Numbered from the stretch's first letter, positions 5,648-29,487 are shown. The stretch: DNA of 64,000 bases from a candidate division WWE3 bacterium (GCA_016182565.1 JACPGI010000003.1:70206-134205); one strand, 5' to 3'. The notes: a model not told the origin generated them from the sequence alone. Program-made: numbers and translations.

Positions 5648-6922
5648 ATGCTTTTGAGTTTTGGCCAAAACCCAAAAAAATTACTTGGGGGAATCAGATT
5701 CTACGTAAATTCTACACCTACCTTTTTAACACAAAATAAGCGTGAGATTTTAAAAATTGGGGTTTTAGTTCTTATTTTACTTGTTACCTCCTTTCAGAAA
5801 TATAAGGTATTTGATGAAGCGGGTGGAGATTTTGAAGTTTATCGTAAAGCCTCAAGAGATTTTTTGAGTGGCAAAAATCCTTATAAATATACAGTTGATT
5901 CCTACAAAAATGAAAAAAATCAAAAAAGAGATGACACAACTCAAGCAAAAAAGGATGATCTTGGTCACGGATTTGCCTATTTACCAGGTTTACTTTACGT
6001 TCAGACACCACTATATGTTTTATCTCAAGAATTTAACTTACCAATTCAGCGAGTTTGGCGTACTCCGGTGTTACTTGTTGATATTGGTGTGAGTGTACTT
6101 TTGATTATAAGTCTGTACAAAAGAAACTATTTAGCAACAGTTTTATCTCTTTTACTTTGGTCTTATTCACCGTTTTTTCTTGTTAGGGGAAGTTACACAA
6201 ATACCGAACCATTTCCTGTATTTTTTCTCTTATTTTCACTTATACTTCTTGAGAAAAATAATAAGTTATCTGCTCTATTTTTTGCTCTATCAGTGGCATT
6301 CAAAACCTTTCCAATTATGTTTTTGCCAATTTTCTTACTAAAATCAAAAGACAAATTCCAATTTTTGCTTATTGGATTTTTAGTTTTTATTTTTATTAGT
6401 TTACCGTTTATGAAATCTTTCCAAGATTTTTGGACTTATCTACAAGGTGCACTTCTTGTCCATGGTGATAGGGAGCTTCAAGGGCGTCCAATCCTTTCTT
6501 ATATCCAATATTATACCGGCATAAATTTTTTCCAGCCTACTTTGTTTAAGTTTTATGTCTATTTGGCCCTTTTATCGGGTCCTTTTGTAGTATTACTTAC
6601 GGCGAAGAGAAATTTGCACAAATATATCCAAGTATTTATTACATTTTTATGTTTTTATATTTTCACTCCTGTTTTAAGTCGAACTCATCTTGTGTGGTTT
6701 ATCCCATTTTATATACTTGGTATGTCTGAACTTGTTTGTCCTACTGATTATCAACTTCCCAAGGATTCAAATGATAAGCCACCTTTAATTCAAAAGTTCG
6801 GATTCAACAAAAAATGGCTTTGGTACTATTTTGCTGTCATTTGTTTTTATGCTTTCTACGCCTTTTATCTTTTATATTGGGATAGGGGTTTTCGTTATCA
6901 GGAAAATACAATCTTACTTTAA
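5648..6922 (+). CDS. GT-C fold polytopic glycosyltransferase (DUF2029/GT87-like)
   Basis: It has more than 10 TM segments and an early loop motif, DFEVYRKASRDFLSGKNPY, typical of DUF2029/GT87 mannosyltransferases. It sits directly after the GT2 gene. Confidence 0.55.
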   Translation: MLLSFGQNPKKLLGGIRFYVNSTPTFLTQNKREILKIGVLVLILLVTSFQKYKVFDEAGGDFEVYRKASRDFLSGKNPYKYTVDSYKNEKNQKRDDTTQAKKDDLGHGFAYLPGLLYVQTPLYVLSQEFNLPIQRVWRTPVLLVDIGVSVLLIISLYKRNYLATVLSLLLWSYSPFFLVRGSYTNTEPFPVFFLLFSLILLEKNNKLSALFFALSVAFKTFPIMFLPIFLLKSKDKFQFLLIGFLVFIFISLPFMKSFQDFWTYLQGALLVHGDRELQGRPILSYIQYYTGINFFQPTLFKFYVYLALLSGPFVVLLTAKRNLHKYIQVFITFLCFYIFTPVLSRTHLVWFIPFYILGMSELVCPTDYQLPKDSNDKPPLIQKFGFNKKWLWYYFAVICFYAFYAFYLLYWDRGFRYQENTILL

Positions 6923-7628: not shown

Positions 7629-8769
7629 ATGATTAATCCAAGCAATGCTAAGTCTAAACCGCAACTAAGTGTTTCTGAGATTAATATATTATTATCAAAA
7701 ACTGGTTGGCAGTCGTGGAGTGGTTCCACCAAGTTTAAGTTGCCAACACATGATTTTCCCCCCAGTGCTTACACACCAAAGATTTTTGAAATGCCAGAAA
7801 TTACTTTAAAACCATCAGCAGTTGGGTGGAGTTCTTGGCCTGTTTTTGGGACAAATATAAATGAAGGTGAATTAATAAAGCAACTAATCTGGTTAAAAAA
7901 TAATCCTGATATAAAACTTGAATATATTTTACTAGATGATGGTTGGGCCTTGTGGGGAGATTGGTTTGATATTGACAGAAAAAATTTTCAAATGGGTTTA
8001 AACCTCTAATTAAACAAATTAAACAGGGGGGGGATTAAAAGCCGGGATCTGGATAGCTCCATTTTTAGTGCATCCGAGGGCCAAAATACTAAAAGAACAC
8101 ACCGATTGGTTTGTATATGATAAGTTGCATGCGCTAACGGACGGCCTAAAAATTTCAAATTGGTCACATTTCCCAATTAAAAGATTCCTTCTTGATATAA
8201 GAAAAGTTGAAGTCCAGAAATATTTGGAAAATGTATTTGAATCTTTATTTGTAGAGATTGGTTTCGAACTTGTAAAGCTTGATTTTCTATACGCAATTTA
8301 TTTTAACTCTCAGATGTCTATATCGGAAAGTGACGACCAATTAAACAAATTTCTGACAGATTTAAAGAAGAGATATCCAGCAGTTTATACTGTTGCGTGT
8401 GGGTGTCCTTTAGTACCAGCAATAGGTGCCGTAGACTCACTACGGATTGCAAAAGACAGCTCAATTGAGTTATATTTTCCAAGATGGTTGGGGTTTCTTG
8501 GTTATTTTATTAATGTAATTCATGCAAAAATTTACTTACGAGCACTTATAAAGAATTATAAAGAACGAGTATGGTCTAAGTGTATTTGGAATTTAGATCT
8601 GGATTTTTTTATTTTCGACAAGGCGCGAGGATTTTCAAAAAAAGATTTGAGTTTATTACTAAGATTAATTAAGGAGTCTAATGGGAATGTGTTTTTGGGT
8701 GGTGATTTAACTAAAATCACAGACGAAGATAAGAAAAATTATATTTATCCCCTATTAAATATCAAATAG
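7629..8769 (+). pseudogene. GH27-like alpha-galactosidase, interrupted by two frameshifts at homopolymers
   Basis: GWSSW/GWQSW and LLDDGW motifs match GH27 (human GLA PPMGWNSW...IDDCW). Continuity with the downstream ORF (GLKAGIWIAPF...KLDFLYA) needs +1 at T4 (7986-7989) and +1 at G8 (8026-8033). The three-frame splice DRKNF/SNGFKPLIKQIKQGG/LKAGIW aligns to GLA [23 protein letters not shown]. Confidence 0.6.
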
Positions 8770-11866: not shown

Positions 11867-12493
11867 ATGAGTAAAAATAGAAAAATATTATTTGCAACCA
11901 CTAACGAAAACAAAATAAAAAGAATTCAGAAGTTAATAAGAGATTTAGACATAGAGTTACTAACCCTCTCAGATATTCCAGAAAAGATCGATGAGCCGAA
12001 TGAATTTGGAGAGAATGCTGTGGAAATAGCCAAAAACAAAGCAATTTACTATTGGGAGGCGACTGGTAAAAAAATGCCGGTTCTTACCCAGGATGATACT
12101 ATGGACTTTTTGGGGAATGTTTCACCGGAGGATGATCCAAAAACTGCAATTAAGGAACCTGTTGTAAAAGCGTTTGGAGAGTACTCAATATCTAATGCGA
12201 TAGCCTATTACTCGAAGCTTGCAGAAAGATATGGTGGTGAAATTGACTTTGCATTTAGATACGGACATGGTTTTGTAAGTGAAGATGGGGCTAAAGGTGC
12301 TAGTTCTTCATTGTATGCCAAGCTTGTGAAAGACCCAAAGGGCATAGATAAAGTGGGTAAATATCCTTTACGTGCATTAACTAAACTTAAGATTGGGAGT
12401 AATTATGTTTATTCCGAAGACTCTACAGAAGAAGAAAAAGTTACAGCAGACTCTGATATTAAACGTGCTTTAGTTGAGTTACTTTGTTCTTAA
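11867..12493 (+). CDS. Ham1/RdgB-like non-canonical purine NTP pyrophosphatase (divergent)
   Basis: N-terminal KILFATTNENKIKRIQ...EPNEFGENAVEIAKNKA...PVLTQDD follows the ITPase pattern (KIVFATGNxGK...E.g.tf.eNA..KA...PvlADDSGL). The C-terminal half is divergent. Confidence 0.5.
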   Translation: MSKNRKILFATTNENKIKRIQKLIRDLDIELLTLSDIPEKIDEPNEFGENAVEIAKNKAIYYWEATGKKMPVLTQDDTMDFLGNVSPEDDPKTAIKEPVVKAFGEYSISNAIAYYSKLAERYGGEIDFAFRYGHGFVSEDGAKGASSSLYAKLVKDPKGIDKVGKYPLRALTKLKIGSNYVYSEDSTEEEKVTADSDIKRALVELLCS

Positions 12494-13263
12494 TTACCTG
12501 TATTTTCGTGCTTATTTCTGGAATTAAAATATGCACAATAGTCACAGTCTATATTCGCTTCGGGAATAGTGTTGGAGTTCAGACACTTTTTAATATCCAG
12601 TAGTTTATTTTCAATCCAGCTATCGTTTCCTTTATATTCTATGAGGGTCATTTCAAATTCAAGCTTGCCGTCGAATGTCTGCTTTTCAGTGTTGCCGTTG
12701 CAGTACACAAAATATCCACTTTCGCGGACTTTATACCCATTTTGCCTTAACAGCCACTGATAAACTTCCATTTGCCTTTTATAACCTTCGTGCCAATCTT
12801 TATCTAGTTGAGTTATTTCCTCGCTCTTACTTGTAGCTTTGTAGTCTACAACTATATATTCACCTTTTGAGTTTATCCACAGGTCGTCTAACGCCCCAAA
12901 AACATACAAATTTGTGGGTTTATGAAAAAACTGAATTCCCTTAAAATTATCTCTCCAAGTATCAAGATCTTTGTGGCTGGCCGGTTTTGCGTCAACTTTG
13001 TACTTAGCTATTAAAGGATGTTGCGTATCGCCTGTGCGATATGTATCAAACTCTTTTTTCAGTAAATGGTCTACAGCGCTGTTTAGGGCAAAAGGATATC
13101 CTGGGGGTCTACCTGTCCCCAATACCCTATCCAAATAGAAACATCTTGGGCAATCTATAAACAAGTCTATTTTTGACCTACTTAACTTAAATGGTTCTTT
13201 TGAATCCTTGAAATATAGGTATTTATCGGTTTTTTGCGAGTTATAGTATTTGCTCATATTCAT
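12490..13263 (-). CDS. Cas4/RecB-family PD-(D/E)XK nuclease with Cys clusters
   Basis: Motifs GALDDLW (D), EYIVVDYKAT (ExK) and QMEVYQWLL (RecB QxxxY) are present, with an N-terminal CPRC and a C-terminal C...CDYC consistent with an Fe-S/Zn site. There is no CRISPR context. Confidence 0.7.
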   Translation of the reverse strand: MNMSKYYNSQKTDKYLYFKDSKEPFKLSRSKIDLFIDCPRCFYLDRVLGTGRPPGYPFALNSAVDHLLKKEFDTYRTGDTQHPLIAKYKVDAKPASHKDLDTWRDNFKGIQFFHKPTNLYVFGALDDLWINSKGEYIVVDYKATSKSEEITQLDKDWHEGYKRQMEVYQWLLRQNGYKVRESGYFVYCNGNTEKQTFDGKLEFEMTLIEYKGNDSWIENKLLDIKKCLNSNTIPEANIDCDYCAYFNSRNKHENTGN

Positions 13264-13277
13264 CTGCTACTAATTTA

Positions 13278-14441
13278 TTAGCGATTTCCCTTAGCTCTAT
13301 TATGCGTTTTGCACAGCATTTGACAATTTTTATTAGTCGTTGCCCCACCTTTGCTCCATGCTGCTACATGGTCAGCATCCATTTCATTGAATTCCCAAAT
13401 TTTGCTGTTATTGGCATCGTGTCCAATAGTACAAAGTGGACAATTTGATATGTCTTTAGCTCTGGCGGTATCTGTCTGCATTGTATATACCGATTTTTTC
13501 GTTGCCTCATCAAACACACGGACCTCTAACAATTTTGTGTCTATAGAATTTCCTAGAATATACTCAAAAATACCTTTACGATTTTTAACATAGGGGTCGC
13601 TATAAAGCTTGTGTACTTCTTTTGATACTTTCACAGGATCATAGGCTTTTTTATGATACTGTTCATACAGTCGTCCCCACTCGAGACTGCGCATTTCACT
13701 TTCCACATCGACAAAAGTGCCCGATATCCAATCTAACACCGTGTTGAAATAGGTTTTTAATTCACTAATGCTTTTATCGTAACGATGACGACTCATGTAG
13801 TCCCCAATACTACCCTTGCTAACCCAATCTAAAGCTTGTTCCAAAAATTCCTGTCTGTTGGCGCTGCCTTTTATGTAAACGCCCCACTTTTGGATGTTTG
13901 CGTTTTGGCTGTTACTAAACTCTTCTTTGCATAATGTTACGAACGGACCAGAATACACTGCATTCAACAATTCTTGTTCGTTTAGCGGGATCCCTGCAAT
14001 ATTAATTGTTTTAAACCACTCTTTTATCTCGCTTTCAGTACCCTCACATTCATAGATGAGTAATGTAGTTTCCAAAATTTTGATTTGTTTGTCCTTAGCG
14101 ATACCGCTAAAATACTGTTCCATGCCGTTTTCATCTTTGATGGCAAATTTGTTAGTAACAAACCTACCTATGCTAGTGATTCGTTGTTGTCCGTCAAGAA
14201 CTTCAAATTTAGCCTCATTTACTTTTGTAAAATAAATTAAACCTATTGGGTACCCTTTTAGAATGGATTCAATGACAGCAACATCTTTTTTGCCATCAGC
14301 ATATATATAGTTACGTTGATACTCGGGTTGGATTGTGAGTTTACCTGATAGTCCGAACAGCCCTTTTCCTTCGAGTTCATTGTAAACGAACCCTTCGCAT
14401 ATATTTTTAATTGAAATACTTGTATTTAATGTTGTTTTCAT
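13278..14441 (-). CDS. GmrSD-like type IV restriction enzyme (DUF262 ParB-like NTPase plus C-terminal HNH)
   Basis: The N-terminus has the DUF262 signature IQPEYQRNY...LDGQQRITS. The C-terminus has the HNH motif [12 protein letters not shown]...[15 protein letters not shown]. Confidence 0.75.
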
Positions 14442-15532
14442 TTTGTTACTCGCTTTCTTACAAATAATCTTTTATAAACTTCTTTACCCTTCAAATAAGA
14501 CCCTCTGCCATAAATATTGTTAGGATCTTGGTTAACACCACGATTTGATCCTAAAATCTCAAATTGTTTGGGATTATATTTATCTAAAAAGCTAACGGGT
14601 ACACCCATCACCCCCTTATAGTCACAGGGAATGCATTTAACAGTAGAAACTTCTATCGCATTGTAATTATCATATTTTTCAAACGGTTTTTTAGTAACGA
14701 ACTTTATTATATCTGCTTCGGTCATTAATGATAAAAATTCGTGAAGTCGCCCATGGTCTAAATTTGTAAACCAGCGAACGCCTTGAACTCTAGTTATAAA
14801 TACCTTTTCTCCATTTTCATTTGTTCTTATTTCTCTTACTTGCTCTAAGTTGGCAATATTCTCTGGTATCTCATAAAACATAGCACCTCCATTAATTTTA
14901 TAGTTGTTGCCAAGCCAAACTCTATTGTCTTTGATCAGCGGGAAAACTTCTATGTATGTAATTGCGTTTAAATTACCTATAAGCAGAAATTGTTTTTTAG
15001 CTTCCACAATCCAAGCTAGAAATTCGCGGAATAAAGAAAAAGGAGGATTTGTGATAATAATGTCTGCTTCGTTACGTAGTTTCTTAAGCTCGTCACTGCG
15101 GAAATCCCCATCACCTTCAAGGTAGTGCCATTCAAGATCTTCGATATTAACCTTTCCGTCGCTAGTATTATCTTTTGTTAAAGTAAATATTTTTCCGTTA
15201 CTAATAGTTTTATTTGCATCATAAAGTGGGTTATTTGTTTCGAAAAGTGTTGGTTGATAAGAGCTTTTATAGTTTTTACTCTTTGTTGCGTAACTGGTGC
15301 TTATTAACTTTTTTATGCCAAAGCGTTCGAAGTTTTGAGCAAAATACTTAGTAAAGTTACTCCATTCTGGATCATCGCACGGTAGTAATATAGTTTTATT
15401 GCGAAAAATATCGGGGTTGTACTCTATATAAGCGGAAACCTCTTTCTCTATATCAAAATATTGAGTATAAAACTCATCATTTTTAGCAGCCTTTGCTAAC
15501 TGCAATTTCTTATTTGCAAATTCATTTTTCAT
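14438..15532 (-). CDS. M.EcoRI-family N6-adenine DNA methyltransferase
   Basis: N-terminal [22 protein letters not shown]...[13 protein letters not shown] closely matches M.EcoRI (SDEFYTQYCDIENELQYY...CNCDDP). The catalytic motif [10 protein letters not shown], is present. The start was moved to the internal Met ([10 protein letters not shown]) that aligns with the M.EcoRI N-terminus. Confidence 0.8.
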
Positions 15533-15621
15533 TGTCGTAGTGGTTTTAGAGAATAGAAACCAATGAAGGTCATCCATTCTCCGTGCAACCTTTCGGTAAC
15601 ACACATACTCTTTCGAGCATG

Positions 15622-15671
15622 ACCACTACGACATGATAGAGAAATGGATGACCATCTCTGCGTCGTAGTGG
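15622..15671. promoter_or_regulatory. Perfect 10 bp inverted repeat (CCACTACGAC/GTCGTAGTGG) with a 29 nt spacer, upstream of the MTase
   Basis: Seen directly: CCACTACGAC at 15623-15632 and GTCGTAGTGG at 15662-15671, with a nested AGAGA/TCTCT repeat in the spacer. It lies in a 314 bp divergent intergenic region. Confidence 0.3.
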
Positions 15672-15846
15672 ATTTGAAACCATGCTTAATTTATGAAGTT
15701 AAGTTTAGGTCTATTACCTTATTAAGTTGTACTAAGATCACGTTCTAATGTGATCACTAGAAGATTATACCCCAATAGTTTTCTAGTATGTAGGTTTTTG
15801 TAATAAATGCTGATTTTCGTTGTTACGGCAAGTATAAAGCGGTATA

Positions 15847-16512
15847 ATGTATGTTAGTATTATGGAAAAAAATAAAAAAATAACAACTACATCTAGAGAT
15901 GTAGAAACTACAAAAGAAAAACCTATCCTCGATAATTTAGAGAAACTTGTAAAAACGGAATCGCAGGGATTTCGACCTAGAAAACTCTTGGTAGATTTGG
16001 ATACCGCATATAAAGCTTACAACGAAGTTAAAGGAACCAAGAAAGCAGAAGATGCCGAAAAAACTTTAAATAATGTTTATAACGATGCAGTTTACGCATA
16101 TTCATTAGACAATCATGTTGCTATAACAGGTTCTGTGACCAAAACCTACAGACCATTGGTTGTAGGCATGACTGAACAGCTTATGGCGGAATTTGATTGT
16201 AAAGCACCGCATGAGAAGGCTTTAGCAGAGCTAATCGCAAGCTCGTACGCTCGTTATATCCAATTCACAAGTTTTTTTAATAATGCTCAAAATATAGATT
16301 ATCTGAGTACTGAAAAAACAAACTACTATACTATGTTTAGCAAAGAGGCCGACAAGGCACATAGGCAGTTTACTAACGCCCTCATGACATTAAAACAAAT
16401 AAAAACACCTGTTCCAACGGTGAACGTAATGGCGAAGAACGCTTTTGTAGCACAAAACCAGCAGTTAAACACTTTTGGTAATGAGAAACAAAAGGAAATC
16501 GTTAATGGGTAA
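15847..16512 (+). CDS. Hypothetical alpha-helical protein, first gene of the RT-containing gene string
   Basis: 221 aa ORF co-oriented with the downstream RT and overlapping it; no recognisable motif. Confidence 0.3.
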   Translation: MYVSIMEKNKKITTTSRDVETTKEKPILDNLEKLVKTESQGFRPRKLLVDLDTAYKAYNEVKGTKKAEDAEKTLNNVYNDAVYAYSLDNHVAITGSVTKTYRPLVVGMTEQLMAEFDCKAPHEKALAELIASSYARYIQFTSFFNNAQNIDYLSTEKTNYYTMFSKEADKAHRQFTNALMTLKQIKTPVPTVNVMAKNAFVAQNQQLNTFGNEKQKEIVNG

Positions 16513-16825
16513 TTATTCAGGAAATAAAATTTTAGTAGATGCTTGTCCAAAAATTACTTTAAAAGGAGTATTTGATGTTGCAAAAGATCAACTTCTAACT
16601 GAGCTTATGAAAAGAACGGCAAATGTTGCCGGATTTGATGTTGAATTTTCATCGAGTTCTCTTGCACACGGCGGAAAACGACTTTGGTTTAAGTGCCCTA
16701 TATGCAGTTCTCGTGCAGGTGTTTTATATAAGCACTTTTTAACTCAACAAGTTGGGTGTAGGACATGCTTAAATCTTGACTATAAAAGTAGAAGGTATAA
16801 AGGTATGACAGAAAACTCGGTGTAG
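16475..16825 (+). CDS. Hypothetical zinc-ribbon protein (CPIC...CRTC)
   Basis: 116 aa ORF with a C-x2-C...C-x2-C pattern. It overlaps the upstream ORF and precedes the RT. Confidence 0.3.
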   Translation: MVMRNKRKSLMGNYSGNKILVDACPKITLKGVFDVAKDQLLTELMKRTANVAGFDVEFSSSSLAHGGKRLWFKCPICSSRAGVLYKHFLTQQVGCRTCLNLDYKSRRYKGMTENSV

Positions 16826-16865: not shown

Positions 16866-18987
16866 ATGAATATGAAAAACGATATATTGTTTGATAATTT
16901 AGTAAATCCGAATAATTTGGAAAAAGCTTTTGATTACTTACTTATTGAAATAGAAGGGTCAAGCTTAGCCCTCGATCCACTGTGGACCCCTGCGGTATTA
17001 GCAATTAAAAAGCATAGAAAAGAATATTTCATTGCTCTTAGTGAGCTTTTGAGAAGTGGTGATTTTCATGCTGATTCAGCAACGTATTTTAAATTTCCCA
17101 AGGACAGTTTAGGTATAAGACCGGTGGCGGTACTATCTGTAACAGATAGGATAGTTTATCAAGCAATTTTTTTACAGCCAGTTTTAGGTAATATCCTTAA
17201 ATCCAAGTTTGTAACTCCACCTTGCTATACGCCTAATATTTCCTTAGGTCATGAAAAAACTTTCCTTGAAGATTGGCACATAAAATGGGATAGCTACATA
17301 GAGGATCAAGTTTTTGCTTATGTGGAAGGGTACAGATATAAGGTTGAGTTAGATGTAAAATCTTTTTTTTGATAACATAAATCACAAACTTATAAGAGAT
17401 TTTTTGACCAAAGATTGTGGAATCAACGGTACAAAAGTAATAGACATACTAATAAACCTATTAGAGACATGGGCTCACAAACCAGGCTTTGGTGTGCCCC
17501 AAGGACCGGAGGCATCTATATTTCTCTCATCCGCATATTTATCAAAATTTGATGAAAAAGCTTTGTCTGTTGGTAACGAGTTAGACTTCAAGATATTTAG
17601 ATATAATGATGACCTTAGTTTAATGGCAAAATCCCCAGAAATCCTCCATCAGGTTATAGAGATTTTATCAGGATATTTGTTTGATATATTCCTTGATCTA
17701 AACGGTAAAACAGCGTTTTACTTGCTTGATCAAAAAGAGATATCAAAACTAAATAAGAGGAGAATTTACTCTCCTTACAACGACGACGAAGATTCTGCTT
17801 ATACTCTTGCCACCATAGAGGATGAAGTTCCTGGATATTTAGAAAAGTTAGCAATAAATAAAAAACTTGAGCAACACGAAATATCGGCCCTGAAGTATTA
17901 CTTAAAGAGCGCAAAAAATAAAGCGTATTTCAAGCAACTTATTGATCTGCTAGATAAATCTCACTCCTTTTCATTATATATATGTAGATATGTACAAAAA
18001 TTTGTTGATGATGGAACCGTTTTTGCTTATTTGTTGAATGCCTATAACAAAAAGCATCTTTATTCGTGGACAAAGTTTTGGGTACTAAAGACTTTAATAT
18101 CATCGAAGTTATTTCAAAACTCCAAATATAAATATGATACAAAAGCAATGGTCTTGGATTCTTTTAATGATAAAAGTTGGGAAATTAGAGCACTTTGTTT
18201 ATATGTAGCCGAAGTTTTTGGTTTCCTAAGTGCTCCAACTATAACAATCGGAAAGTATTATAGATCCGCGGAAAATATCTACGAAAAGAGCATGACATCG
18301 TATTTACTCGGAAATAGAAAAGAATACAATTCCCTGTCGGAATTGTTAAGGAATGAATGTGTAGACCTGCAAATAATTGCTTACAGTTTTTTGAATAAAT
18401 TTGAATTGACACAGCTTCCAAACGATCTTTCACAATTTAGTCAAAAGTTGTTCAATATAAACGATGTCGAAGCAAAAAATGATTCTAATGTACAAATACC
18501 AAACTCTTTACTCGATCTTATTAGTGAAAGTGGAGCTGTTCACGTGACATTAGACACGAGTAAATTGAAAAAAGAGTTAGGTTTAACCTGGAACCATAAG
18601 GGTAGTATTTTGAAAAAATCAAAGCAGGTAGCCCATTGGTTGGAACAGAAGGAAACAGGTCATATCGTTATGGATGGAACGTACATATTGTCTAATCCTA
18701 ATGTTGATAGTGAAAACTGGACATTTATATCGTATGTTATTAGCCGATCTGGTAAGCAAATTACACGCAAAGAAATTAACGCTGATTCATCAGAACGTGT
18801 GTTACGCCCATTCAATAACATCCTTAATGATCTTGGATTTAAGGGTGAGATTAAGAAGTTATTTTTCCCTAAGACAGGCGATGACTCCGTAAGGTTTTTC
18901 TGTAAAATAAAATACGGAGATATGAAAACAATGTTGGTAGACGAAGAAAAGCTTAAAAGCCAGCTTAAAAAATTAAAGAGAATTTGA
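16866..18987 (+). CDS. Single-chain reverse transcriptase (Abi/DRT-like, about 700 aa with a C-terminal helical extension), interrupted by a frameshift in a T8 tract at 17363-17370
   Basis: RT motifs are all present: 1/2 PKDSLGIRPVAVLSVTDRIVYQAIF, A KVELDVKSFF|DNINHKL (split by the frameshift), B' GVPQGPEASIFLSSAYL, C RYNDDLSL (YxDD) and D/E LDLNGKTAFY. The C-terminal 430 aa or so is helical and non-RT. ORF1 (16866-17372) and ORF2 (17404-18987) join if one T is removed. Confidence 0.8.
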
Positions 18988-19971: not shown

Positions 19972-22335
19972 ATGCAACAAGATTATAACAAATTAAATAA
20001 ACAACCGTCTGAGTTTTTAGACGAGTGGAAAATTGAATATGATGACAAAGGCAAGGAACTTGTGTTAGCCTGTTTGTTTTCTGACTGCGATAGTGAGGGA
20101 AACACCAAACACCTATACATGGACGCAGACACGGGGCAATTTTGGTGCCACAAATGCCATAAGAAAGGTAACCTTGTTACTGTTGCCGAGCATTTGAATC
20201 TAAACCCATCAGACCTATTTGAAAAGCCTAAAACGAAAACTGTAAGACTAAAAAGTGGTAGAAAGGTTGAACTAAAAGCAGAACCCAAGTCCGAGGAGTT
20301 ACTAGAAAAAGCCAGTAGTTACCATAACAACCTATCCGTTGAACAACGTGAATATCTGAACAAGAGGGGCATAACAAACGCTACGGTTGATACCCGGCTT
20401 ATTGGTGAGAGCGAAATATATGGAGTTAAAAGAATCACACTCCCTGTTTTTGATAAAAATGGAAATGTAATAAGTATCAAGGCTAGGGTTGTTCAAGAGT
20501 TAGAAGAAGCTACAGATGCAAAATATGTGTATTTCCCTACGGGTGCAAAGGCATCGCTTTACGGTTTAGACCTATTAGAAAAAAGTATTTCTGATTTTGC
20601 GATTATTTCCGAAGGTGAGTTTGATTCGCTAATTCTTTCACAATGGGGATACACTTCAGTTTCTTCTACCGGTGGAGCTGGAACATTTTCATCTGATTGG
20701 GTTTTATTTTTTGATAATTTCCAAAAGATATATTTTTGCTATGACAACGACAAGGCGGGCAAAGAAGGCGCAATTGAACACGCCAAAAAGTTTAAAAACA
20801 AAAAAGTATTTATAGTAGAAATACCACAAATTGAGGGTGTAAAAGATGTAACAGAATTTGCAACGGTTGCAGGAAATACAAAAGAAGATTTTGAATTGCT
20901 TTTGAAAAATGCCAAAGAATATAATCCTTACAGTCCAGAGTTCCTAAATCTTGAGTTTGGCGAGCCAATCAAAGAGTTTATTCCGTCACAGTTTTATGAT
21001 GCAGACACTACGTTTTTCACTATTCCGTTAAACATTAAAAATAATGAGGAAAGTCCATTCAGGGTTATAACCTCAAACAAAGAACTTTATACGCTAGATG
21101 AAGTTAAGGATAAGTTTAACTACAAAATAGTAAGAAATCCTGATTTTATGCAGCGTTGGAGTTCAGATGGTGTAAGGGCATATTTATCCGGCAAAGGTGC
21201 ATCTAGCTATAATATTACGTTGCAGGAGCTGGTTTCTTTCCTGAAACAATATGTTGACCTGTCAAACGAAAACTGGTATTTGGTTATAGCCCTATGGCTT
21301 TGGGGAACTTACTTTTATCGTATCTTTAATAGTTACCCCTATTTCAACGTAAACGGCTTGATGGGCTGTGGTAAGTCAAAGTTATTGGAAGTTGGCTCAT
21401 TTCTTGCTTTCAACGGTGAGTTTTTAGTTACCTCTACCCCGGCTTTTGTTATTGATTGTATAAACGATAATTGTGCAACGCTATTCTTGGACGAAGTTGA
21501 AAATCTTAAAAATGCTGCAAATCCCGACACACAAACAATGGTTCAAATGCTTAACTCTGGTTATAAGAAGGGTCCCAAGAAAGGTAAGAAAGACCCAAGC
21601 GGTAAAGGTAAAGGCTGGAACTCAATAAAACTAGACCCTTACAGCCCAAAAATGATTGCTGGTATCAAAAACATTAGCGACACGCTTATTTCTAGATCAA
21701 TAAATATGACTATGGTTTTGAGCAACAATAATGAAATCAAGAATAAAGAATTAAGCGAATCTGATACAAGATTGAGCAGTTATAGAGATACTTTCTATTA
21801 CTCTGCAATGGAACTTCACACCGATATTAAGGATATTTACAATCAACTAACCGAAACAGAAGTTTTTGGTAGAAATTGGGAAGTTTGGAGACCACTATTT
21901 TGCATCGCTTTAGCACTGAATAGCCAAAACCCTGAAAGTGAACCTGTTAACTACAACAAAGTTAGAACCTTTGCATTGGAAATAATAAAAAACCAATCAG
22001 GAATAAATGCAGAAAACCAAAGCACAATCCAAATGCTTGTGGCGTTTAGAGAAATGATGGTCCGAGATCAAAGATTAAACAACTTTTACACTATGTCGCA
22101 ACTTAAAACCTTTTTACTTGATAATCACGGAGACTATTTTGATTGGCTTGGAGAGTTCAAGGAAAGTGGCATAAGCCGATACATAGGCGATGAGTTAAGA
22201 AAGACCGGGATTGTAACGGAAGCTGCAAAAGCTGTAAAAATTGACGGTAAGACCCAAAGAGGCTTCATTTTGGATAGGAATTTAATAGAAAGGCGTCTTA
22301 AAGCCTACGGTATTGAGTTTGGAGTAACTGCGTAA
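19972..22335 (+). CDS. Primase-helicase (CHC2 zinc finger, TOPRIM, P-loop NTPase)
   Basis: It has a zinc-binding CHKCHKKG, a TOPRIM region (IISEGEFDS...CYDNDKAGKEG) and Walker A GLMGCGKSK in the C-terminal half. This is the architecture of phage/plasmid primase-helicases. Confidence 0.75.
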   Translation: MQQDYNKLNKQPSEFLDEWKIEYDDKGKELVLACLFSDCDSEGNTKHLYMDADTGQFWCHKCHKKGNLVTVAEHLNLNPSDLFEKPKTKTVRLKSGRKVELKAEPKSEELLEKASSYHNNLSVEQREYLNKRGITNATVDTRLIGESEIYGVKRITLPVFDKNGNVISIKARVVQELEEATDAKYVYFPTGAKASLYGLDLLEKSISDFAIISEGEFDSLILSQWGYTSVSSTGGAGTFSSDWVLFFDNFQKIYFCYDNDKAGKEGAIEHAKKFKNKKVFIVEIPQIEGVKDVTEFATVAGNTKEDFELLLKNAKEYNPYSPEFLNLEFGEPIKEFIPSQFYDADTTFFTIPLNIKNNEESPFRVITSNKELYTLDEVKDKFNYKIVRNPDFMQRWSSDGVRAYLSGKGASSYNITLQELVSFLKQYVDLSNENWYLVIALWLWGTYFYRIFNSYPYFNVNGLMGCGKSKLLEVGSFLAFNGEFLVTSTPAFVIDCINDNCATLFLDEVENLKNAANPDTQTMVQMLNSGYKKGPKKGKKDPSGKGKGWNSIKLDPYSPKMIAGIKNISDTLISRSINMTMVLSNNNEIKNKELSESDTRLSSYRDTFYYSAMELHTDIKDIYNQLTETEVFGRNWEVWRPLFCIALALNSQNPESEPVNYNKVRTFALEIIKNQSGINAENQSTIQMLVAFREMMVRDQRLNNFYTMSQLKTFLLDNHGDYFDWLGEFKESGISRYIGDELRKTGIVTEAAKAVKIDGKTQRGFILDRNLIERRLKAYGIEFGVTA

Positions 22336-22853: not shown

Positions 22854-22950
22854 CTATGTATAATTTATATGGATACATATGCAAAGATAGTGAAATGGCC
22901 GAATTGGTCTTATATCTTTGCGGATGTATCCAACCAGTTCGGCCATTTTT

Positions 22951-24576
22951 ATGGAAATAAATAGAAACCTTACAGGCTTAAAAGCCATTGAATACAACCG
23001 CAAAAGCTCGGAAGACGAGGAACGCCAAATCGCGTCTCTTGAAGATCAACATGCAGAAAATCAAAAAGTGATTGAAAGACATCAACTTAAAGTTGCAAAG
23101 TGCGACATTATTGAGGAATCTAAATCAGCCAAGAAACCTGGGCGACCGAAGTTTAATAAAATGGCTGAAGATATTGCTAATGGCAAGTATCAGGTTATTG
23201 TGTGTTGGCAGGCAAACCGTTTAGCTCGTAATTCTCGTGATGCTGGTGAAATCATTGGCTTACTTTCCGATAAAAAACTAATAGCAATCGTTACTCCTGG
23301 TAAGATTTACTATAACGGTGGTGAGGACAAACTTCTTCTTTATATCGAATTTGGTATGAGTGAAAAATACAGCGATGACTTATCAGCAAATGTTATTCGC
23401 GGTATGACTTCGAAAGTTGGTAGAGGTTGGTGGCCTGGTAGACCAAAAGTAGGTTATGTAAACATTAAATATGACGGTGAGGAACCTGTTCAGATTATAG
23501 ACGAACAAAGGTTTCCGCTACTCCGCAGAGCGATAGACCTATTTTTAGATGGTAATCACACGGCACCCCGCGTTTTAGAAATATTAAATGACGAGTGGGG
23601 TTTTAAAATGCGAAAAACCAAAAGAACCGGTGGTGGGAAGATGAGCAAAGGTAAGTTTTACAGCTTTTTATCCGACCCTTTTTACTATGGAAAATTGATT
23701 TGGGGCAAAGAGATTGGGGATGTTCATAAAAACCTGAAGCGACTCCTGAGTGAGGACGAGTTTTGGAAAGTACAGGCTCTTATGGGTAAACGCGGACAAG
23801 CAAGACCAAGTGTACATACCAAACTGCCGTTTAGAGGCCTAATTAAGTGCGGTGAGTGCCAAAGCACTTGGATTCCTTATGCTAGACCTAGGCAAACGGT
23901 TGATGGTAGCTTTAAACTGTACGAATATATTAGGTGTAACCACGACGGGATAAGTAAAAAATGTACACAAAAACAAGTAACTATCCAAGAAATTGAGAAA
24001 CAGGTTTTGGAGTTGTTGGACCAGATAACAATCTCGGAGGACTTCTGTAATTGGGCAATTGATTGGATTAAAAAGCAGCATCAAACAGAATCAAGCGCAC
24101 AACTACAAATACTCAAAAATCTTGAAAGTTCTTTGGAACAAATCCAAGGCCGCAAGAATAAGTTAGTAGAAATGTATATGGATAGCCTGTTAGACGGACA
24201 AGCAGACTATAAGAAACGCAAAGCGGATTTGGAAAAAGAGGAACAAGATATACAAAAGGAATTAAACGCCTTGAAAACCAGAACAAACAACTGGATGGAT
24301 TTGGCTATTAAAACCTTCAACTTTGCAAAGAACGCCCGCTATCACTTTGAACATGGAACATTTGAGGATAAGACTTTGATACTTCGCACACTCGGCTCGA
24401 ACTTTTACATGCTTAACGGGAAACTGTGTGTTGACCTAATAAAACCCTTCTTTATTTTCAAAAACAATCAGGATTTAGTAAATGTGCCTTTTGAAACTAT
24501 TGAAAACCCAGAATACGCCGACGTTATGGCCGGAACTGATGATCTTGAACATTGGTTTTTAAAATGGTCGGGGTAG
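22951..24576 (+). CDS. Large serine recombinase (integrase)
   Basis: The N-terminal catalytic domain has YNRKSSEDEERQIASLEDQ and ANRLARN. A recombinase domain and a zinc ribbon (CGECQ...C) follow, then a coiled coil. The stop codon overlaps the 3' end of tRNA-Pro. Confidence 0.8.
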   Translation: MEINRNLTGLKAIEYNRKSSEDEERQIASLEDQHAENQKVIERHQLKVAKCDIIEESKSAKKPGRPKFNKMAEDIANGKYQVIVCWQANRLARNSRDAGEIIGLLSDKKLIAIVTPGKIYYNGGEDKLLLYIEFGMSEKYSDDLSANVIRGMTSKVGRGWWPGRPKVGYVNIKYDGEEPVQIIDEQRFPLLRRAIDLFLDGNHTAPRVLEILNDEWGFKMRKTKRTGGGKMSKGKFYSFLSDPFYYGKLIWGKEIGDVHKNLKRLLSEDEFWKVQALMGKRGQARPSVHTKLPFRGLIKCGECQSTWIPYARPRQTVDGSFKLYEYIRCNHDGISKKCTQKQVTIQEIEKQVLELLDQITISEDFCNWAIDWIKKQHQTESSAQLQILKNLESSLEQIQGRKNKLVEMYMDSLLDGQADYKKRKADLEKEEQDIQKELNALKTRTNNWMDLAIKTFNFAKNARYHFEHGTFEDKTLILRTLGSNFYMLNGKLCVDLIKPFFIFKNNQDLVNVPFETIENPEYADVMAGTDDLEHWFLKWSG

Positions 24577-24641
24577 CAGGACTCGAACCTGCGGCCTCGC
24601 GAACCCGAATCGCGCGCTCTAGCCAACTGAGCTACACCCCG
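24565..24641 (-). tRNA. tRNA-Pro (anticodon CGG)
   Basis: A manual fold of the reverse complement gives a 7 bp acceptor stem (CGGGGTG/TACCCCG), a D-arm, an anticodon stem CGCGA/TCGCG with loop TTCGGGT, a T-arm GCAGG-TTCGAGT-CCTGC and an encoded CCA. Confidence 0.85.
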
Positions 24642-29408: not shown

Positions 29409-29487
29409 TGGTCGGGGTGACAGGACTCGAACCTGCGAATTCTCCGAACCCCCAGCTCGGCGCTTTAGCCAACTAAGCTACACCCCG
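29409..29487 (-). tRNA. tRNA-Pro (anticodon GGG), with an atypical 7 nt variable region
   Basis: The reverse complement CGGGGTGTAGCTTAGTTGGCTAAAGCGCCGAGCTGGGGGTTCGGAGAATTCGCAGGTTCGAGTCCTGTCACCCCGACCA folds as a cloverleaf. The anticodon loop is CTGGGGG and the variable loop AGAATTC contains GAATTC. Confidence 0.7.

Follow-up and report, generated by a model that had tools for sequence, protein, structure and literature searches.

We analysed a stretch of 64,000 nucleotides (hereafter the window) of a candidate division WWE3 bacterium (GCA_016182565.1, JACPGI010000003.1:70206-134205), and in particular a group of three minus-strand genes spanning positions 12490-15604. An earlier note on this DNA had described the group as a defence cluster made of a Cas4-like nuclease, a GmrSD-like type IV enzyme and a DNA methyltransferase (MTase) of the M.EcoRI family without an EcoRI-like endonuclease, possibly an orphan. 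A database protein with 100% identity likewise assigns the organism to WWE3 (Patescibacteria). The three genes are real, and our open reading frame (ORF) calls match those of the note; the domains it assigned to the three proteins are borne out by Pfam (PDDEXK_1 for the Cas4-like protein, GmrSD_N/DUF262 followed by HNH for the nuclease, EcoRI_methylase for the MTase), and each of the three carries the motifs expected of it. However, the genes are not "convergent", as they run co-directionally with one another; only the Cas4-like gene converges with a neighbor, namely the plus-strand Ham1-like gene at 11867-12493, with which it has a 4-bp overlap. As for their being "overlapping", this holds for the MTase and nuclease genes, which share 4 bp (ATGA), but the nuclease gene is separated from the Cas4-like gene by a gap of 14 bp. 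The earlier observation is partly confirmed, while its interpretation turned out to be largely wrong: the segment 13278-15532 (minus strand) is likely to be a two-gene restriction-modification (R-M) cassette of the BanLI type, in which the modification gene (M) precedes the restriction gene (R). Upstream of the MTase gene lies an RNA element, LOOT, which had been overlooked. The features of the locus are collected in Table 1.

Table 1. Features of the R-M locus and of its immediate flanks (positions counted from the first nucleotide of the window).
Feature	Position	Strand	Evidence
EcoRI-family (gamma-class) N6-adenine DNA MTase, 364 aa, first gene of the proposed R-M cassette	14438..15532	-	Pfam, PADLOC, M.EcoRI alignment
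DUF262 (ParB/Srx-like NTPase) + HNH nuclease, 387 aa, proposed restriction subunit, 4-bp overlap with the MTase stop	13278..14441	-	
Stand-alone Cas4-like PD-(D/E)XK nuclease, four Cys, 257 aa	12490..13263	-	Pfam PDDEXK_1
LOOT RNA (Rfam RF03000), full-length	15584..15711	-	Rfam match
Linker, or putative "expression platform", between LOOT and the MTase AUG	15533..15583	-	read from sequence
Divergently oriented reverse transcriptase of DRT UG19/UG21-like type, in two ORFs owing to a frameshift	16866..18987	+	PADLOC matches on both halves

The MTase matches the Pfam family EcoRI_methylase (PF13651) at 6.3e-117 and the PADLOC profile MTase_II, which stands for Type II MTases, at 2.6e-89; its motifs DEFYT, CDDP and the catalytic N162PPF are intact. 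The note had spoken of a strong N-terminal similarity to M.EcoRI. The similarity is there, but its extent was understated, as the two proteins are 40% identical over their whole length, the alignment starting from residue 1 of both. The ORF as first given, 14438-15604, begins with a GTG at 15604 and codes for 388 aa; it is over-extended. We placed the start at the ATG at 15532, because the alignment with M.EcoRI begins at residue 1 of the corresponding product and because the GTG extension enters the LOOT RNA. No NCBIfam model was found to match either the nuclease or the MTase. We also met, on plasmids of Lactococcus cremoris/lactis (H80-H87), a recurring unannotated fragment of 52 residues which is 81% identical to residues 30-81 of the MTase and occurs in a total of 21 Lactococcus records; we take it for a probable remnant, as a pseudogene, of the same MTase family.

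The second gene of the cassette codes for a protein with two domains, for which Pfam reports GmrSD_N/DUF262 (4.4e-22) and HNH (PF01844, 2.9e-6; HNH_5 is also reported) and no DUF1524. Its motifs are Q42R43, D83GQQR, C334xxC337, D357H358 and H380N381. It matches the REBASE-derived profile PDLC03418 of PADLOC, a profile of Type II restriction endonucleases (REases), at 3.6e-82, residues 8-386 being aligned with positions 7-371 of 372. We drew the branches of the family from a representative library of 1.8 billion proteins (6125 clusters at E ≤ 1e-3, 443 at E ≤ 1e-30), and every branch matches this same profile end to end, with scores of 223-347 bits. In an alignment of 61 sequences with a mean column identity of 30%, the residues Q42, R43, D83, G84, R87, C334 and H358 are invariant, while D357, N372, C337 and C377 are nearly so. 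This means that both domains are under selection, since motif residues of both are kept invariant or nearly so throughout the family.

The same 61-sequence alignment gave a model by AlphaFold2 (AF2) with a predicted local distance difference test score (pLDDT) of 93.2 and a predicted template-modelling score (pTM) of 0.77; an earlier model, built from a shallow alignment of sequences about 80% identical, had a pLDDT of 45 and was discarded. Foldseek found no full-length structural match for the model (best E 0.017). The structural neighbors of the DUF262 domain are BrxU, SspE and a DndI-type protein, those of the HNH domain McrA and Cas9. Searching the PDB with a profile of the nuclease, we retrieved the HNH domains of 4h9d, IscB, Cas9 and McrA, at 2e-6 and weaker, and a marginal sequence match with BrxU (E 0.24 to 8e-4) on the QR and DGQQR motifs; single-sequence searches of the PDB with all three proteins returned nothing useful. 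One can notice that several of these features fit another explanation. Under it, the DUF262+HNH protein would work by itself as a GmrSD-like Type IV enzyme on modified (cytosine) DNA, and the MTase of N6-methyladenine (m6A) beside it would be unconnected with it, either as an orphan or as what remains of an EcoRI-like system that has been lost. The GmrSD_N domain with its DGQQR motif is in keeping with this reading, the nearest structures (BrxU, SspE and the DndI-type protein) belong to modification-dependent or modification-sensing defence, and the automatic annotation of JGI names homologues "McrA". The likeness with GmrSD, BrxU and SspE, which lies in a DUF262 switch domain with the (I/V)DGQQR nucleotide-binding motif, does not extend to the C-terminal part: there the window nuclease carries a canonical HNH with a CxxC...CxxxC zinc ribbon, and not DUF1524 with its EHxxP motif. 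At 387 aa it also has only about two-thirds of the length of the solved BrxU chain (580 aa).

The genomic company of the nuclease has the pattern of an obligate M-R partnership and not that of a free-standing Type IV enzyme. We scanned genomes, one per species, which gave at least 588 stretches with relatives of the nuclease; the best 80, which come from many phyla and have 78-83% identity, were analysed. A second set of 80 loci, with nuclease identities of 37-81%, was obtained by scanning viral contigs with a profile. Loci were taken as informative when they had at least about 900 bp upstream in the genome set (73 loci) or at least 1 kb upstream in the viral set (73 loci). An EcoRI-family MTase gene lies upstream on the same strand in 71 of the 73 informative genome loci and is found on the same strand in 70 of the 73 informative viral loci, hence in 141 of 146 taken together, often overlapping the nuclease gene or within about 20 bp of it. 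Even the nine distant relatives from viral contigs all have the MTase on the strand of the nuclease, one of them (L369) with the order R then M. The order M then DUF262-HNH, with abutting or overlapping genes, is also seen in Moraxella, Enterococcus faecium, Pseudarthrobacter and Pediococcus plasmids and in a Flavobacterium phage; the third gene differs in each of these five annotated replicons (four phyla plus a phage). On the chromosome of Bifidobacterium dentium the order is M, then DUF262+HNH, then a serine recombinase.

The two partners also evolve together. Over 72 loci (L001-L088 plus the window), the identities among MTases and those among nucleases covary, with a Mantel r of 0.42 that was reached by none of 2000 permutations, and the partner MTases form sub-clades which loosely track the 387-aa and 389-aa variants of the nuclease. 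Judging from these neighborhoods and alignments, the MTase and the nuclease are an obligate M-R pair. The MTase is not an orphan, because the nuclease adjoining it is its conserved partner and matches the profile of Type II REases from end to end. For the Type IV explanation, these results are hard to accommodate: the MTase stays on the same strand while the identity of the nuclease varies from 37 to 83%, the pair moves as a unit on small plasmids and phages, and a nuclease obligately paired with its own MTase sets the window apart from GmrSD, BrxU and SspE. Dependence on the modification made by the partner would be incompatible with this obligate pairing. Together with the short chain, the canonical HNH and the Type II profile match, this makes us consider a free-standing Type IV enzyme quite improbable.

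The junction between M and R is an insertion hotspot, inserts being found between the genes or just upstream of them, with spacings of 1-3 kb (L012, L017, L019, L025, L040, L045, L047, L048, L066 and L069). The inserted genes include RhuM, Fic/DOC, DUF2130, Bro-N, an AAA_15/OLD-like protein, a CBASS-like pair of SMODS and Cap15 type, T5orf172 and a D12 MTase. Such inserts are passenger genes typical of R-M operons. On the plasmid pBC of B. choerinum (L375/L376), the nuclease gene is cut off after about 114 codons, where it adjoins the chloramphenicol-efflux gene cmx, and the MTase gene is intact; here the pair has naturally given rise to an "orphaned MTase".

We found no description in the literature of a pair made of an EcoRI-family MTase and a DUF262-HNH protein. 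The lead to BanLI came only through a 2026 paper, according to which the gene that REBASE lists as coding for the RTCAGG-specific Type II REase of Bifidobacterium animalis subsp. lactis is annotated "DUF262 domain-containing protein" (PMC13091528). In BanLI, described in that bacterium by O'Connell Motherway et al. (2014), a 41.7-kDa MTase, which the authors aligned to M.EcoRI, is followed directly 3' by the gene for a 43.5-kDa restriction protein, and M.BanLI methylates RTC(m6A)GG, on one strand (PMC3990576). The order M then R and the protein sizes fit the window pair (364 aa and 387 aa), and the window nuclease matches PDLC03418 end to end as do all its relatives. A REBASE-listed enzyme of this sort is the kind of sequence on which the R-M profiles of PADLOC are built. 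The differences are that the window cassette is found in Patescibacteria (WWE3), between a LOOT leader and a Cas4-like gene, and that RTCAGG is not avoided in its host. Membership in the BanLI family is well supported, and we infer it formally from annotation, sizes, gene order and the REBASE-derived profile, BanLI being compared by its description.

If the cassette works in this way, the EcoRI-family MTase would set N6-methyladenine on the host copies of a short recognition sequence, and the DUF262-HNH protein encoded downstream, translationally coupled to it through the 4-bp overlap, would attack DNA without that mark; its cleavage would then be methylation-sensitive and the protein would be the equivalent of R.BanLI. 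The DUF262 domain is probably a switch driven by nucleoside triphosphates (NTPs) which licenses the HNH domain, by analogy with BrxU, SspE and GmrSD, from which a dependence on NTP may be expected here too.

The recognition sequence itself was approached by a word-avoidance test, which covered palindromic 4- and 6-mers as well as every 5- and 6-mer, both in the window and in pooled host DNA (0.72-0.85 Mb). The earlier note had expected a depletion of GAATTC, the EcoRI site. The window contains 16 occurrences, for 19 expected from a Markov model or 22.4 ± 4.1 from shuffles, and the pooled host DNA (0.85 Mb) contains 255 for 286 expected; GAATTC is therefore not avoided in either, and neither is RTCAGG. 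Two occurrences of GAATTC lie inside the genes of the cluster, at 13389 in the nuclease gene and at 12933 in the Cas4-like gene, and the one reported in the tRNA-Pro(GGG) is indeed present, at 29437-29442. An EcoRI-family MTase need not target GAATTC, because the EcoRI-like MTase of BanLI methylates RTCAGG (PMC3990576). With the EcoRI system, the window shares the Pfam family of its MTase, at the identity given above, and the motif order DEFYTQY, CDDP, NPPF; it differs in having a nuclease unrelated to R.EcoRI, the order M-R where the EcoRI plasmid has R-M, and GAATTC not avoided but present within the nuclease gene. An isoschizomer of EcoRI was accordingly rejected as a candidate: no EcoRI-like PD-(D/E)XK REase lies beside the MTase, in agreement with the note, which had seen none, and there is no such gene among the ORFs and domain matches of the window.

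Some observations weigh against the reading as a Type II R-M cassette of the BanLI type. Neither the window nor the pooled host DNA has a shared avoided word which would identify the site. No EcoRI-family MTase was detected near the nuclease in three viral loci and in two genome loci, L069 and L021 (the contig stops at the end of L021). BanLI itself restricts weakly, P1vir being restricted about 10-fold in E. coli (efficiency of plating about 0.1) and transformation being affected 1.8-fold, and its authors considered the system incomplete (PMC3990576). Lastly, the mean pairwise identity over the 72 loci is 79% for the nuclease, in which no segment is hypervariable, and 59% for the MTase. In Type II pairs the MTase is usually the more conserved of the two. 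Because it outdoes its MTase in conservation, the nuclease itself may depart from the classical way of reading the sequence, which may leave room for a mechanism in which it reads the methylation state and not a long sequence.

The same observations may be read in another way, the pair being chiefly an addiction or abortive-infection module: a rather unspecific toxin nuclease would be restrained by genome-wide m6A or by the MTase protein, and would attack the DNA of its own cell, or that of a replicating phage, once methylation lapses through plasmid loss or through inhibition of the MTase by a phage. A uniformly conserved nuclease facing MTases which diverge into sub-clades would fit such a module, as would the lack of an avoided recognition word, the 10-fold restriction and one-strand methylation of BanLI (PMC3990576), and the frequent occurrence of the pair on small plasmids and beside recombinases. 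Yet post-segregational killing also belongs to ordinary Type II R-M systems, so that this explanation overlaps with ours and does not exclude it, and the co-evolution of M and R speaks for a nuclease which follows the activity of its MTase. We hold it unlikely that addiction is the chief role of the pair, though we give this more credit than a free-standing Type IV enzyme.

An attractive reading of the locus is thereby corrected, since there is neither an orphan EcoRI-like methylase nor a type IV enzyme here, and what takes their place is an ordinary-looking R-M pair. Its family is already listed in REBASE and widespread (at least 588 species, in many phyla, phages and plasmids), and has barely been studied. 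It is worth attention because its nuclease, in which a ParB-like NTP-binding domain is joined to an HNH domain, keeps an identity of about 80% from phylum to phylum. In BanLI, its only studied member, one strand of an asymmetric site is methylated and restriction is weak. Beyond the mechanism and the extreme conservation of the nuclease, two features of the locus deserve to be pursued, namely LOOT as a probable cis-regulator of R-M genes and a Cas4-like gene which trails every type of defence cassette in Patescibacteria. The R-M unit itself is known in kind; the LOOT leader and the frame in which the cassette is set are the new and interesting part.

The Cas4-like protein of 257 aa matches PDDEXK_1 at 1.9e-13 and falls below the curated cutoffs of the Cas4 models (Cas_Cas4 PF01930, 21.9 for a cutoff of 22.7; TIGR00372, 27.7 for a cutoff of 65). 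Like Cas4, it has RecB-type motifs (D140-Y-K, Q164xxxY), four cysteines arranged as two CxxC pairs at opposite ends (C38xxC41 and C240xxC243) and weak matches to Cas4 profiles; unlike Cas4, it is part of a separate, tight clade whose genes trail diverse defence operons. The 64 kb contain no CRISPR-like array of spaced direct repeats, and among the annotated neighbors we saw no cas gene. A CRISPR-associated Cas4 was rejected on the basis of the sub-threshold scores and of the missing array, the neighbors being R-M, reverse transcriptase (RT) and housekeeping genes. Its homologues number in the thousands, each a stand-alone protein of about 250 aa; the best matches have identities of 67-87%, and the few named members are all from Patescibacteria.

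The note had proposed that the MTase may be partnered by the Cas4-like nuclease in a non-canonical R-M system. The two genes have the same orientation and the Cas4-like gene starts 14 bp downstream of the cassette, homologues of it recur at the 3' ends of R-M operons, and PD-(D/E)XK is the commonest fold among REases. Nevertheless a Cas4-like gene was found near the M-R pair in 1 of the 80 genome loci and in none of the 80 viral loci. Homologues about 70% identical trail Type I, Type IIG, m5C/NgoFVII and Type III-like operons, which have their own nucleases, and elsewhere they follow housekeeping genes. Being conserved across differing MTase specificities, the protein is not a site-specific cognate REase. 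As a cognate pair the proposed partnership therefore fails, and we regard it as extremely improbable; what stands of it is a recurrent link of the Cas4-like gene to R-M operons in general. The gene is not part of the M-R unit.

Co-directional homologues of the Cas4-like gene, with identities of 55-82%, occur at distances from a few bases to some tens of bases 3' of defence modules of many sorts: an MmeI-like Type IIG enzyme with DUF4268 (L089), a 5-methylcytosine (m5C) MTase with an NgoFVII-type REase (L091/92/106/107), Type I HsdS-HsdR (L096, and L152 via an SMC-like gene), a Type III-like Mod-Res pair (L173), an M-S fusion with a UvrD helicase (L101), an AlwI-type REase (L117), ResIII-type helicases (L105, L142), a HerA-like ATPase or a SIR2-HerA module behind a distant M-R pair (L110, L156), and an RT (L104). 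A minority of the loci (L097, L114, L116) have housekeeping genes in this place. The DNA similarity of the window to L173, L096 and L095 begins at the ATG of the Cas4-like gene or within 5 nt of it. No synteny with the Ham1, Tmk and NDT genes of the window was found in 80 metagenome loci, which means that the Cas4-like gene is not anchored there as one of the housekeeping genes. It is a recurrent 3' companion of defence operons generally in Patescibacteria.

On the other side of the cassette, LOOT is a full-length match to its Rfam model (positions 1-121 of 121, 59.6 bits for a gathering threshold of 46.4) and ends 52 nt before the ATG of the MTase. We take this motif to come from the motif survey of Weinberg et al. 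2017. The leader has a folding energy of -67.6 kcal/mol, for -38.3 +/- 3.9 in shuffled sequences (z -7.5). Three other full-length copies were found, in L173 (73.9 bits), L080 (86.4 bits) and L184 (90.9 bits); an IUPAC pattern scan of viral contigs gave mostly chance matches, of which only L184 was confirmed. Rfam files LOOT as a small RNA (sRNA) gene of unknown function, whereas it lies here in sense orientation upstream of an ORF in all four loci. In the window, the 5' arm of the central stem of LOOT, CCACUACGAC, is repeated without change as a third arm at positions 15534-15543 (10 nt), ending 1 nt before the AUG. L173 has the same layout of arm 1, arm 2 (its complement) and arm 3, made with a different arm sequence, CCCGCUACAGA, which ends 2 nt before the start codon; all three segments covary between the two loci. 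When the pairings are forced, the LOOT-native fold has -68.4 kcal/mol and the fold pairing the start region -70.5 kcal/mol in the window, for -75.9 and -77.3 kcal/mol, respectively, in L173. A target-site duplication was rejected as the origin of the arm repeat, which includes the conserved LOOT junction AAA(A/U)CC and differs between the loci in sequence and not in layout.

The LOOT leader would thus be a cis-acting bistable switch, two near-isoenergetic folds of which free or bury the start of the MTase gene. It resembles a leader acting in cis on whichever R-M operon fills the place behind it, and not a trans-acting sRNA, because it lies in sense upstream of an ORF and because a start-codon-proximal copy of the arm covaries in two loci. 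If this is true, the switch would be the first function for an orphan motif. Two facts speak against it: the switch is drawn from two loci, the window and L173, and the LOOT copies of L080 and L184 precede small membrane-protein ORFs and are without the third arm. These last copies lie at 8537-8659 (minus strand) in L080 and at 5922-6043 (plus strand) in L184, a predicted viral contig which starts with a tRNA; one of the predicted membrane-protein ORFs behind them has a zinc-ribbon-like CxxC...CxxC. We looked for a LOOT-like three-arm layout in the MTase leaders of 24 other M-R loci and found none, which makes LOOT a property of the place and not of BanLI-type cassettes.

The comparison with L173 indicates what this place is. 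There, a divergent RT, an intergenic region with LOOT (70% identical to the window in DNA) and a Cas4-like gene (82% identical) frame a different cassette, a Mod-type MTase of the N6_N4 family followed by a ResIII helicase (Type III-like); the distance from LOOT to the first R-M gene is 49-52 nt in the two loci, and both first genes begin with MKNE. Seen from this alignment of the two loci, the cassette is set in a swappable slot, with flanks on the LOOT/RT side and on the Cas4-like side which are conserved in L173. We tentatively suggest, as a possibility which we still find doubtful, that Patescibacteria possess an exchange locus for defence cassettes, with a bistable LOOT leader acting in cis on one side and, on the other, a co-transcribed Cas4-like Fe-S nuclease serving as an accessory to any type of R-M system. 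The Cas4-like gene would then be a generic accessory nuclease of R-M systems, which might process restriction fragments in organisms without RecBCD/AddAB, or feed nucleotide salvage.

Beyond LOOT come two small unknown ORFs (15847-16512 and 16475-16825) and then the RT, which forms the other flank of the slot. It is in two halves, 16866-17372 and 17404-18987, both of which match RT_UG21/UG19 in PADLOC, and the change of frame occurs in a run of eight T at about 17362-17369; phase variation, an error of assembly or decay into a pseudogene may account for it. The RT homologue of L173 is uninterrupted and has the same relative position. Further on are a Toprim primase-like gene (787 aa, 19972-22335) and a large serine recombinase (552 aa, 22918-24576, plus strand) with the domains Resolvase, Recombinase and Zn_ribbon_recom, which overlaps the end of the tRNA-Pro(CGG) gene (24565-24641, minus strand). 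The setting which the note had described, a defence island beside a mobile element, is supported by the DRT-type RT, the Toprim primase-like gene and the recombinase abutting the tRNA. The recombinase at tRNA-Pro and the primase-like gene suggest an integrative element, with the cluster in it or at its edge. No att-type direct repeats of tRNA-Pro delimiting a mobile element were found, as expected for a serine recombinase. Distant homologues of this recombinase recur near Cas4-like genes in L109, L115 and L152, and also in L089.

Finally, the segment 10162-12493, which faces the Cas4-like gene, is a run of nucleotide-salvage and sanitation genes: a nucleoside 2-deoxyribosyltransferase with a duplicated domain (336 aa), a thymidylate kinase and the Ham1-like protein, the family match of which is limited to about 75 N-terminal residues. 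The G+C content of this run is raised, at 0.41-0.43 for about 0.34.

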